From positions 50,163-92,573 of the forward strand of contig CAZUYQ010000003.1 of NCBI GenBank assembly GCA_964624705.1: a stretch of DNA of 42,411 nt, in the 5' to 3' direction. This stretch comes from an uncultured Polynucleobacter sp. GTDB lineage: Bacteria; Bdellovibrionota_B; Oligoflexia; Oligoflexales; RGVZ01. Positions 23,265 through 24,536 of this stretch are shown here, piece after piece. A program made the translations under genes and the position numbers. A model generated the notes under the pieces. It made no database searches and was not told the origin of the DNA. It saw only the letters and a list, made by a program, of their open reading frames with translations. Position 1 is the stretch's first letter, and each line of letters begins with the position of its first letter.

Positions 23265-24536
23265 ATGAAAAAAAAGTTTTTGTTATCAGGTATGGCGTTC
23301 ACCCTTCTTGCAAATTCATGCCGCTCCAGACATTCTTCTGATGTAAAAGCGCTTACTAACCTGAATCAAGGTGAAGAATTATTGGATTTAACGAGTTATA
23401 AAATCTTAGATCCAAAATTAGCAGACCGCATGGGTGCAGCCCTTGATAAAGAAACTGGATACAAAACCTCCGAGCTTGAATCAAACTTGCGAATACTCTT
23501 AAATGCCAAGACCGAAGCTGTTAATTTCCCAAGGGAGGTCTATTACCCAGAATTCGTTGCTATTCATCTATATACCATCTCTACCTACAATCAGGTAAAC
23601 AAGGACTTACGAGCCCTGCCACAAGCTCCATTGACTGCAAAAGCGGGCCAAATCGTCGAACAAGATGCGAGTAAAACCGTCACTAAAATGCCAAGCGTGG
23701 TGCAATTGATTGCTTCAGGTATTAATAAGATGCCGCGTCATGCCTGCACTGCAAGGCGGGGAACAGATCTTCCGAGCGAAGTTGCAAAACGCATTGAAGA
23801 TGAGCGTTACTATACAGAGAAAGCTTTTGTCAGCACGAGTGACGGAGGTAAAGGTTTTGGCGGAACGCACAACTATGTTATCAATTCGGAAAGCTGTCCT
23901 AAATCTATTTCCGGTATCTCCGAGTTTCCAAACGAAAAAGAAGTTTTGTTCCCCCCTGGCTCAGAATTTGAAGTGACACGAGTGCAAAAAAAAGGCAACG
24001 AACGTCGCTACTGCGTGAAGCACATCTATCCAAGTCCTCCTGGCCTAAAACCTAATCCTGTTCTTTCTCAGACAAAAAAAGACACTAAAAATGGTCAAAT
24101 GAATGCTGTCCAAGTCATTCCTGTAGGCTCAAACTCTGATTCAGCGTCAAATTCAAATTCTACCTTTGAAAACTTTGCTGATCCTCTAGCAAGACCGCTC
24201 GAAGAGTTAAGCTGGATCGATCTGATTTGCGGCAAATATGAAGCGGATGTTGATGATAAGAACTGTACCGGCCTACCCAAATTTGTCCAGTTTGATGCAA
24301 TCAATTCAGCACTCGTTGCAACACCCTTCGCTAGCCCCACCGAAATTACTGATTGGAGTATACAAGACGCCAGAACCTCTGCACCTAAGGTCAAGTTGAA
24401 AGACCTTGTCTTCGACATCGAAGCGGTCGATACCCTTAAATATAAAGGCTGTACGTACAAAGAAAAGATTATCAAAGACGATCATCCACCCTCAAACGAT
24501 TCGCCAACGTCTCCAAGTACAGCTGCACCTGCATAA
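23265..24536 (+). CDS. Putative ADP-ribosyltransferase toxin lipoprotein (R-S-E class ART domain plus unknown C-terminal domain)
   Basis: The ATG at 23265 has GGAG 7 nt upstream. Signal/lipobox MKKKFLLSGMAFTLLANSC. ART motifs: LYTISTYNQVNKDLR, ARRG, FVSTS and NEKEVLFPPGSEF. The track ORF starts at TTG 23235. Confidence 0.7.
   Translation: MKKKFLLSGMAFTLLANSCRSRHSSDVKALTNLNQGEELLDLTSYKILDPKLADRMGAALDKETGYKTSELESNLRILLNAKTEAVNFPREVYYPEFVAIHLYTISTYNQVNKDLRALPQAPLTAKAGQIVEQDASKTVTKMPSVVQLIASGINKMPRHACTARRGTDLPSEVAKRIEDERYYTEKAFVSTSDGGKGFGGTHNYVINSESCPKSISGISEFPNEKEVLFPPGSEFEVTRVQKKGNERRYCVKHIYPSPPGLKPNPVLSQTKKDTKNGQMNAVQVIPVGSNSDSASNSNSTFENFADPLARPLEELSWIDLICGKYEADVDDKNCTGLPKFVQFDAINSALVATPFASPTEITDWSIQDARTSAPKVKLKDLVFDIEAVDTLKYKGCTYKEKIIKDDHPPSNDSPTSPSTAAPA

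Follow-up and report, generated by a model that had tools for sequence, protein, structure and literature searches.

Few bacterial weapons are as well understood as the ADP-ribosylating toxins. Those known are soluble exotoxins, proteins injected by type III, type VI or type VII secretion systems (T3SS, T6SS, T7SS), or parts of polymorphic toxin scaffolds that come with immunity genes. In the characterised ADP-ribosyltransferases (ARTs) of the R-S-E group, an ExE motif goes with arginine specificity and a QxE motif with asparagine specificity. HopU1 is an arginine-specific R-S-ExE enzyme, Tre1 is an arginine ART with antibacterial action, C3 has QxE and acts on an asparagine of Rho, and the vertebrate ecto-ARTs are disulfide-stabilised and carry ExE. 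Among lipoproteins, the SitA toxins of Myxococcus pass between outer membranes by exchange (PMC5562445, PMC8546572), and APD1 and APD2 of Amoebophilus are lipobox-tethered effectors (PMC3482391). Here we describe a gene at 23265-24536, on the forward strand of a 42,411-nucleotide stretch of DNA (hereafter the window; positions 50,163 to 92,573 of contig CAZUYQ010000003.1, assembly GCA_964624705.1), from an uncultured bacterium deposited as Polynucleobacter sp. and placed by GTDB in the Oligoflexales. Its product combines a lipobox-like export signal with an R-S-ExE ART domain and an orphan C-terminal domain. The catalytic domain is that of an ordinary R-S-E ART; what is new is the lipobox-ART family to which the protein belongs, a recurrent and undescribed architecture in a little-studied lineage.

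An R-S-ExE ADP-ribosyltransferase domain

The open reading frame (ORF) encodes a 423-residue product and ends at the stop codon 24534-24536. A GGAG sequence lies 9 nt 5' of the ATG at 23265. The mechanical ORF opens earlier, at TTG 23235, and the gene caller picks the start equivalent to the ATG also in P0001, a relative that is 93 % identical. An exhaustive search of representative proteins with the product returned 589 at E <=0.001. The family counts given below were drawn from 156 hits that we examined, and counts out of 29 refer to the aligned relatives in alignment A1. The protein begins with a signal peptide ending at Cys19, followed by the R-S-ExE ART domain; a disordered linker rich in Ser and Asn joins this to a C-terminal domain that is compact and all-beta, and the chain ends in a Pro/Ser tail, with the features listed here (pLDDT, predicted local distance difference test).

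23265..23321 (+), signal peptide, residues 1-18: KKK n-region, hydrophobic FLLSGMAFTLLA, then a lipobox-like A-N-S-C, with Cys19 as the predicted lipidation site
23352..24035 (+), ADP-ribosyltransferase catalytic domain, residues ~30-257, from Pfam, AlphaFold and Foldseek
23385-23399 (+), DLTSY, part of the family-specific N-terminal strand motif 'T-x-[FL]...[VIL]DLTxY' seen in the alignment
23559-23612 (+), YT...Y..N..LR helix of the ART domain
23745..23897 (+), Cys161 (23745-23747) and Cys211 (23895-23897), a predicted disulfide flanking the catalytic Arg strand within the ART domain
23757..23759 (+), catalytic Arg R165, the 'R' of R-S-E, present in 29/29 and aligned with the Arg of Tre1 'yRGt'
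23832..23840 (+), STS motif S190-T191-S192, with S190 in 28/29 and aligned with Tre1 'STS'
23934..23942 (+), ExE of the ADP-ribosylating turn-turn (ARTT) loop, E224-K225-E226, with the catalytic Glu E226 in 29/29 and E224 in 28/29, aligned with E-A-E of Tre1 and E-Q-E of XopAI
24036..24161 (+), predicted disordered linker, residues 258-299: a conserved head, PPGLKPNPVLSQ, then a variable Asn/Ser-rich stretch
24162..24494 (+), orphan all-beta C-terminal domain, residues ~300-410, about nine strands, with Cys322, Cys334 and Cys396; pLDDT >90 in the full-length model
24495..24536 (+), Pro/Ser-rich disordered tail and stop codon, residues 411-423; pLDDT <50

A previous inspection of these letters, made without database searches (the sequence-only reading), had proposed from its motifs that this 423-residue product is an ART-like toxin. 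Every motif is found where that reading had put it: the N-terminus MKKKFLLSGMAFTLLANSC, with the Cys19 codon at 23319-23321; AIHLYTISTYNQVNKDLR at residues 99-116; A163-R164-R165-G166, with the R164/R165 codons at 23754-23759; and the S190-T-S192 and E224-K-E226 motifs at the codons listed above.

Two Pfam profiles recognised the domain above their gathering scores, a match well outside what chance would give. PF03496 (ADPrib_exo_Tox) covered residues 99-247 with 35.3 bits (E 9.7e-9, gathering score 23.4), and PF01129 (ART, NAD:arginine ADP-ribosyltransferase) covered residues 79-246 with 27.4 bits (gathering score 22.3). The best matches among PDB sequences were XopAI (E 3.9e-9), Tre1 (2.3e-8) and Vis (1.3e-7). 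Aligned with Tre1, the query has 'RRGtdlp', 'STS' and 'nEkEvlfPPg' where Tre1 has 'yRGttlp', 'STS' and 'nEaEvlyPPn'. We built an AlphaFold2 model from the 29-sequence alignment, which reached a mean pLDDT of 81.5 and a predicted template modelling score (pTM) of 0.79. Its pLDDT was above 90 across most of residues 31-257, with only residues 20-26 ahead of them disordered as a tether. The model has the ART fold, a helical N-terminal part joined to a split beta-sandwich. A Foldseek comparison of the model with the PDB gave 105 matches at E <=0.001. All 50 of the 50 matches listed were ARTs, headed by HopU1, XopAI and Tre1 at about 1e-10 (best 1.6e-10) and followed by Vis, C3 and ExoS/ExoT down to 1e-7.

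Conservation among the 29 relatives pointed to the same residues. Residues C19, L42, E96, N112, L115, R116, R165, F188, E226, P231, G232 and F235 were invariant, and T31 and D41 were nearly so (at least 90 %). The sequence-only reading had named the pair R164/R165 as catalytic. Position 164 varies among the relatives (N, Q, K, Y, V and others) and only R165 is invariant, which identifies R165 as the catalytic Arg. E224 stands at the position that distinguishes ExE from QxE enzymes. Apart from this correction, profile, fold and catalytic-residue conservation all uphold the ART assignment, including by the profile and Foldseek comparisons that had been suggested as checks on it. The window protein is a genuine R-S-ExE ART.

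Comparison with described ADP-ribosyltransferases

The ART domain has its best sequence and fold matches in HopU1 and XopAI, HopO1-type T3 effectors of plant pathogens (PDB 3u0j, 6k93/6k94), with Foldseek E-values of 1.6e-10 to 5.7e-10 and target-normalised template modelling (TM) scores of up to 0.71. These effectors have type III secretion N-termini and no C-terminal beta domain, whereas the window protein has a Sec/lipobox signal. The NCBIfam XopAI equivalog, NF041404, matched the window protein with 42.3 bits against a cut-off of 300, and over the C-terminal half only. In the XopAI alignment, the catalytic Arg is missing from XopAI and present in the window protein.

Tre1 of the Serratia proteamaculans T6SS (PDB 6dre/6drh, with Tri1) aligns at R, STS and ExE and matches in fold at E 2.8e-10, with a target-normalised TM score of 0.71. 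It is delivered by the T6SS (the depositors' chain name is 'PAAR repeat-containing protein') and its gene adjoins an immunity gene of the ADP-ribosylhydrolase (ARH) type. In contrast, the window protein has a lipoprotein signal, and neither an ARH nor an immunity gene adjoins it. Polymorphic and Tre1-type toxins place an N-terminal trafficking domain (PAAR, Rhs, MIX) before a C-terminal toxin, while the ART of the window protein follows directly after the signal peptide, and only ART families were matched.

With C3 and the VIP2/iota toxins, the window protein shares PF03496, the fold (Foldseek E ~1e-7 to 1e-8) and the YT...Y..N..LR helix. The QxE of C3 is replaced here by E224-K-E226, whose first residue is E in 28 of the 29 relatives. 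The binary toxins (VIP2, iota, C2, CDT) consist of two tandem ART folds and a separate pore-forming B component resembling protective antigen (PA), whereas the window protein has a single ART and the window contains no PA-like gene. Finally, the vertebrate ecto-ARTs (PF01129, ART1/ART2), which are held by a glycosylphosphatidylinositol (GPI) anchor, are matched by profile above the gathering score. They have an extracytoplasmic location, a lipid anchor, R-S-ExE and one or more disulfides in common with the window protein, for which anchor and disulfide are predicted. Their GPI anchor is C-terminal, unlike the N-terminal bacterial lipobox here, and the match is weaker than that to bacterial exotoxins; the likeness in disulfides is one of presence.

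Export signal and predicted disulfides

The N-terminus had been described as lipobox-like, and this description stands in part: an export signal with an invariant Cys is present, and the lipobox of the window protein itself is non-canonical. Cys19 is found behind a hydrophobic segment in all 29 relatives, while positions -3 to -1 vary (LLGC, LVSC, FFAC, LVNC and others). An invariant Cys at +1 despite variable preceding positions is the pattern predicted by a lipobox and not by a type I signal. The PROSITE pattern PS00013 is satisfied by 26 of 31 family members. The window protein, with a 12-residue hydrophobic core and the KKK n-region, fails the strict pattern through Asn at -2 (A-N-S-C). 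Taken together, its sequence and those of its relatives indicate that it is probably lipid-anchored. In Escherichia coli, a residue other than Asp at +2 sends a lipoprotein to the outer membrane. The +2 residue after Cys19 is Arg here and K, R or Q, never D, in the family alignment, so the E. coli rule, which may not hold in the Oligoflexia lineage, would predict an outer-membrane destination.

The mature window protein has six further cysteines, an even number (161, 211, 250, 322, 334 and 396). C161 sits four residues before the catalytic Arg. In A1, 25 sequences have Cys at both positions 161 and 211 and the remaining 4 have it at neither, with no mixed case. A disulfide is the simplest explanation of this co-variation, and would mean that the domain folds in an oxidising compartment, outside the cytoplasm; we infer a C161-C211 disulfide on this basis. 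C250 is restricted to the four sequences that bear the window-type C-terminal domain with C396, and an inter-domain C250-C396 disulfide is possible.

The linker and the orphan C-terminal domain

Residues ~260-423 had been read as a linker, a Cys-containing domain and a Pro/Ser tail, and the AlphaFold model has this layout, with pLDDT below 50 over residues 258-297. The window-type C-terminal domain was seen only in P0001, P0002, P0003 and a truncated copy on locus L024; the Pro/Ser tail is missing from P0002 and P0003. Two metagenome scans did not find further members of this subfamily. A query of a 5.8-billion-protein index with the C-terminal domain alone gave no match and missed even the known 93 % relative, so that it is uninformative.

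The claim that this domain resembles nothing recognisable was borne out in every search. It had no Pfam match, no PDB sequence match in a profile search with alignment A2, and no significant fold in Foldseek searches with the stand-alone model (pLDDT 74.5, one of five models good), where the best E-values were 0.6 against the PDB and 0.37 against BFVD. The resemblances returned by Foldseek, none of them significant, were to barrels like those of lipocalins and fatty-acid-binding proteins (FABPs) and to a T6SS immunity chain.

The domain is nevertheless genuine and under strong purifying selection. Thirty-nine of its positions do not change among sequences of 49-97 % identity. In comparison with the orthologue on locus L001, the ratio of nonsynonymous to synonymous substitution rates (dN/dS) was 0.08 for the C-terminal domain, 0.23 for the ART domain and ~0.96 for the linker (small counts); neighbouring genes gave 0.04 and 0.11, and the higher 0.23 of the ART domain is in keeping with effector-like evolution. 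The pLDDT of the C-terminal domain rose from 74 or less with 4 sequences to >90 with 29, to which the full-length context may also contribute. The pTM of the model, 0.79 although 60 residues are disordered, suggests that AlphaFold sets the C-terminal domain in a rigid position against the ART domain.

Other family members carry a different-looking beta-rich domain of ~90 residues (alignment A3), which follows the ART domain once, twice or three times (P0004-P0006, P0008, P0013, P0014, P0016, P0017, P0019, P0022, P0023, P0036, P0041 and P0122). This domain matched no Pfam family, with weak Lipocalin_4 hints only, and no PDB sequence. Comparison of the window C-terminal domain with A3 by hhalign gave a P-value of 0.003 but a probability of 9.9 %, and the A3 hidden Markov model (HMM), run against a database of 157 sequences, picked up P0002 at E 0.018. 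A remote kinship of the two domains is hinted at by these alignments.

At the start of the linker, the run YPSPPGLKPNP begins in the ART domain and does not vary among four sequences with overall identities of 57-93 %. It lies within the motif HxYPSPPGLKPNPxLSQ (24021-24071, residues 253-269), kept in four sequences. The same position is occupied by GFKxIxSGxKxNI in P0015, P0021 and P0117 and in the Oligoflexus paralogues L007, L012, L016 and L011. The linker-start motif may mark a site of processing, sorting or interaction. An antisense ORF of 126 residues (24095-24475, minus strand), with a counterpart in L025, lies within the coding region of the C-terminal domain and is most likely a by-product of codon composition.

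Family members and their distribution

Full-length coverage of the window protein was found in one representative cluster only (P0003) among the 589. At least 31 of the 156 hits share a signal peptide ending in Cys, '[VIL]DLTxY' about 20 residues further on, and then the ART domain. One metagenome-assembled genome of Oligoflexus holds six paralogues on six contigs, all with lipoboxes. On L024, a contig-truncated copy (3-914; 87 % identical to the window protein) is followed after 50 nt by P0002 (965-2152; 63 %), and then comes a family-2 glycosyltransferase (GT2) gene that is 87 % identical to that of the window. The L024 pair is a tandem duplication. Scattered paralogues, tandem duplication and variable C-termini fit a diversifying effector arsenal in the Oligoflexia (Bdellovibrionota). 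In the literature, no link was found between ADP-ribosyltransferases and either the Oligoflexia or Bdellovibrio lipoproteins, and the papers in which lipobox and ART occur together describe no such family.

ARTs of the same clade also occur at the extreme C-terminus of large proteins of 819-2212 residues (L014, L015, L009, L021, L022, L023). Carriers of such C-terminal ARTs include Myxococcaceae, Archangiaceae and Mycobacterium genavense; theirs is the classical order of polymorphic toxins, in contrast to the N-terminal ART described here. Other matches in the search were C-terminal ARTs on proteins of up to 5751 residues.

Proposed function and alternative readings

On balance, we lean towards the view that the window protein is an exported, envelope-tethered mono-ART effector, specific for arginine and aimed at non-self cells. 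Our model suggests that the precursor would be exported unfolded via Sec, Cys19 would be acylated and signal peptidase II would remove residues 1-18. The mature protein would then be sorted to the outer membrane, facing either the periplasm or the surface, and the C161-C211 disulfide would form outside the cytoplasm. Since the compartment of folding would contain no NAD+, the producer would need no immunity protein. The complete set of R165, S190-T-S and E224-x-E226 indicates, at the level of sequence and model, that the enzyme is catalytically competent, and from its ExE motif it would be expected to transfer ADP-ribose from NAD+ to protein arginine side chains. Activity would arise only inside an NAD+-containing compartment of another cell, a prey bacterium or a eukaryotic host, reached by contact-dependent membrane transfer, vesicles or predation. 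The C-terminal domain would most likely provide target binding, cell entry or control of activity. In this conditional form, we infer the labels of toxin, non-self target and targeting or delivery module that the sequence-only reading had used.

That reading had also seen no antitoxin or ADP-ribosylhydrolase gene next to the ART gene, and this observation can be extended to the relatives. A Pfam scan of all window ORFs of at least 120 residues found no ARH or macro domain. The flanking ORFs scanned in the paralogues and relatives held no recognisable immunity domain, and no neighbour was common to the 14 loci.

Several points weigh against the effector reading. The missing immunity gene is negative evidence, and such a factor might lie at another place in the genome or look too unfamiliar to be recognised. 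The window shows no identifiable receptor or delivery machinery. The A-N-S-C lipobox is atypical, and the same A-x-S also suits signal peptidase I. XopAI, the nearest sequence relative with a structure, has Thr where R165 aligns, and it reportedly does not bind NAD+.

The alternative that survives best, which we nevertheless regard as unlikely, is a bacterial ecto-ART. Such an enzyme would stay on the envelope of the producer and modify proteins or peptides outside the cytoplasm, either the producer's own surface or periplasmic proteins or surface molecules of a host or prey, using NAD+ from lysed or attacked cells. Its closest analogy would be with the GPI-anchored arginine ARTs of vertebrates (ART1/ART2), which are stabilised by disulfides. 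In favour of it, the protein matches PF01129 above the gathering score, and a predicted lipid anchor, a very short tether (residues 20-26) and a conserved predicted disulfide occur together, with ExE as in the vertebrate ecto-ARTs; an ecto-ART would require neither an immunity gene nor delivery machinery. However, NAD+ is normally scarce for a bacterium outside cells and in the periplasm. By both sequence and structure, the protein comes closest to toxins that are injected or secreted (HopU1, XopAI, Tre1, Vis) and not to ecto-ARTs, and a set of multiplied paralogues that differ in their C-termini is more suggestive of an effector arsenal.

A little further down the scale, we place an interbacterial or kin-competition lipoprotein toxin like SitA, with immunity encoded elsewhere or built in, the C-terminal domain being a cis-inhibitor that is released in the target. 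Lipoprotein toxins that are passed between outer membranes are documented (PMC5562445, PMC8546572), and ARTs of the same clade lie at the C-termini of large proteins of Myxococcaceae and other bacteria. As in the window family, SitA and APD1/APD2 have an N-terminal lipobox and a conserved N-terminal segment that serves as an effector 'address'. A cis-inhibitor would agree with the pTM of the two-domain protein, which suggests a C-terminal domain locked in place against the ART in the model, and with the presence of C250 only where this C-terminal domain with C396 occurs. The Foldseek matches of the C-terminal domain also include the T6SS immunity chain 9jdd_B (TM 0.42, probability 0.54, E 1.6; not significant). 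This structural hint, however, is statistically meaningless, and co-variation could be assessed for one Cys pair only, C161-C211, which lies within the ART domain. None of the 14 loci has an adjacent immunity gene, unlike SitA, Tre1 and the polymorphic toxins. Furthermore, the domain order is opposite to that of SitA and the polymorphic toxins, which have the toxin at the C-terminus. SitA and APD1/APD2 have a constant N-terminus and a variable C-terminal toxin, whereas the window family has a constant N-terminal ART and a variable C-terminus. SitA also has an adjoining sitI immunity gene downstream and an N-terminal escort domain; the window protein shares the lipobox only, in a comparison of architecture rather than of sequence.

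Bolder, and somewhat less probable again, is an extension of the effector reading to a whole class of effectors of Oligoflexia and similar bacteria that are independent of secretion systems. These would be outer-membrane-anchored arginine ARTs, harmless to the producer by virtue of a compartment free of NAD+ and, in the subfamily of the window protein, also restrained by a C-terminal cap stapled through a putative C250-C396 disulfide. They would be transferred into prey or host cells through membrane contact or fusion and activated by reduction in the target cytosol.

We consider it very improbable that the protein is a catalytically dead ART-fold binder (an arginine-peptide adaptor, as reported for XopAI) or a structural lipoprotein of the envelope: XopAI, the top sequence match, does have Thr at the R165 position, but R165 (29/29), S190 (28/29), E224 (28/29), E226 (29/29) and the helix residues N112, L115 and R116 are kept here, and such family-wide catalytic conservation is not expected of a non-enzyme. 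It is hardly more credible that the ART acts on a non-protein substrate (DNA or RNA bases, a small molecule or an antibiotic): R-S-E ARTs of the pierisin/ScARP group modify guanine and Vis was crystallised with agmatine (4xzk), yet HopU1, Tre1 and ExoS modify protein arginine, ExE is conserved and no pierisin-like protein is among the top structural matches.

The family is set apart by its constant head of lipobox, DLTxY and ART, by a predicted conserved disulfide, by variable C-terminal modules and by the lack of any immunity partner seen, and it has multiplied within genomes of the poorly studied Oligoflexia (phylum Bdellovibrionota). The better-known relatives of this group (Bdellovibrio) prey on bacteria, and there are host-associated members too. 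If the proteins are active toxins, they would point to effector delivery by way of lipoproteins, besides offering new specificities among arginine ARTs and an orphan beta domain that may serve entry, targeting or auto-inhibition. Should the protein do no more than act as an enzyme at the surface, bacteria would have in it a rare analogue of the eukaryotic ecto-ARTs. Were the capped, transferable class to exist, it would be a bacterial and transferable counterpart of the vertebrate ecto-ARTs, in which cis-immunity replaces an immunity gene. The catalytic domain is ordinary and detectable by automated annotation, so the value lies in architecture and lineage, not in a new enzyme class. The significance would grow substantially if lipoprotein delivery or cis-inhibition by the C-terminal domain were demonstrated.

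Genomic neighbourhood

The window is ordinary chromosome, with pstSCAB, two-component systems, helicases, a penicillin-binding protein (PBP) and folB. Its MoxR ATPase has its best named relatives in Pseudobacteriovorax antillogorgiicola (62 %) and Oligoflexus sp. (60 %), which assigns the source to the Oligoflexia (Bdellovibrionota). Downstream, the ART gene is followed by a GT2 gene, and two features lie upstream of it.

21727..21809 (+), tRNA-Leu(UAA), found by ARAGORN, 78 nt 5' of the ORF at 21888 that holds the protease gene, and in the same place in L001
21912..23135 (+), putative lipoprotein zinc metallopeptidase, the upstream neighbour, MNKLFFLALSLFTFYSC, with lipobox FYSC and HEMGHVWGLCD from 22578

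The protease label rests on the HEMGHxxGxxD motif together with profile matches that are sub-threshold only (Pfam Reprolysin_2, E 0.013; NCBIfam M6 domain, E 3.6e-5). The sequence-only reading had remarked that a lipidated ART paired with a lipoprotein protease would be an unusual architecture. The order protease, ART, GT2 is repeated in L001, where the ART is 93 % identical, and the protease is absent next to all of the more distant family members that we examined, which lie in unrelated gene contexts. As the adjacency is confined to L001, it looks like local synteny and not an architecture, and the protease is probably not a functional partner of the ART.

Protease and ART were rejected as a conserved module: upstream of P0004/P0005 lies a protein without relation to the protease of the window, and an all-against-all BLAST of the neighbours at 14 loci found nothing in common beyond close synteny. 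A genomic island at the tRNA-Leu gene was rejected for want of evidence: the 3' end of the tRNA gene is not repeated in the window, its position is conserved in L001, and the GC content is only slightly lower (0.43 vs ~0.46). Membership of a defence system was dismissed too, the PADLOC match being insignificant.

Three genes on the minus strand, at 25629-26963, 28252-29523 and 29520-31784, are absent from the otherwise syntenic L001, so that gene content varies downstream of the ART gene. They encode a 444-residue signal-peptide protein without a domain match, a putative glucoamylase and a protein like GH35/GH42 beta-galactosidases. A second putative zinc metallopeptidase is encoded at 9043-9852 (+), where Peptidase_M10 matched just above its gathering score. 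At 37637-41524 (-) lies an unusually long ORF of 1295 residues resembling class A PBPs, with a transglycosylase domain and a weak, partial transpeptidase match far downstream, a distance that points to large inserted regions. Lastly, the product of 19273-20172 (+) has a eukaryotic-type (alpha) carbonic anhydrase domain after an N-terminal extension of ~120 residues with a hydrophobic segment.

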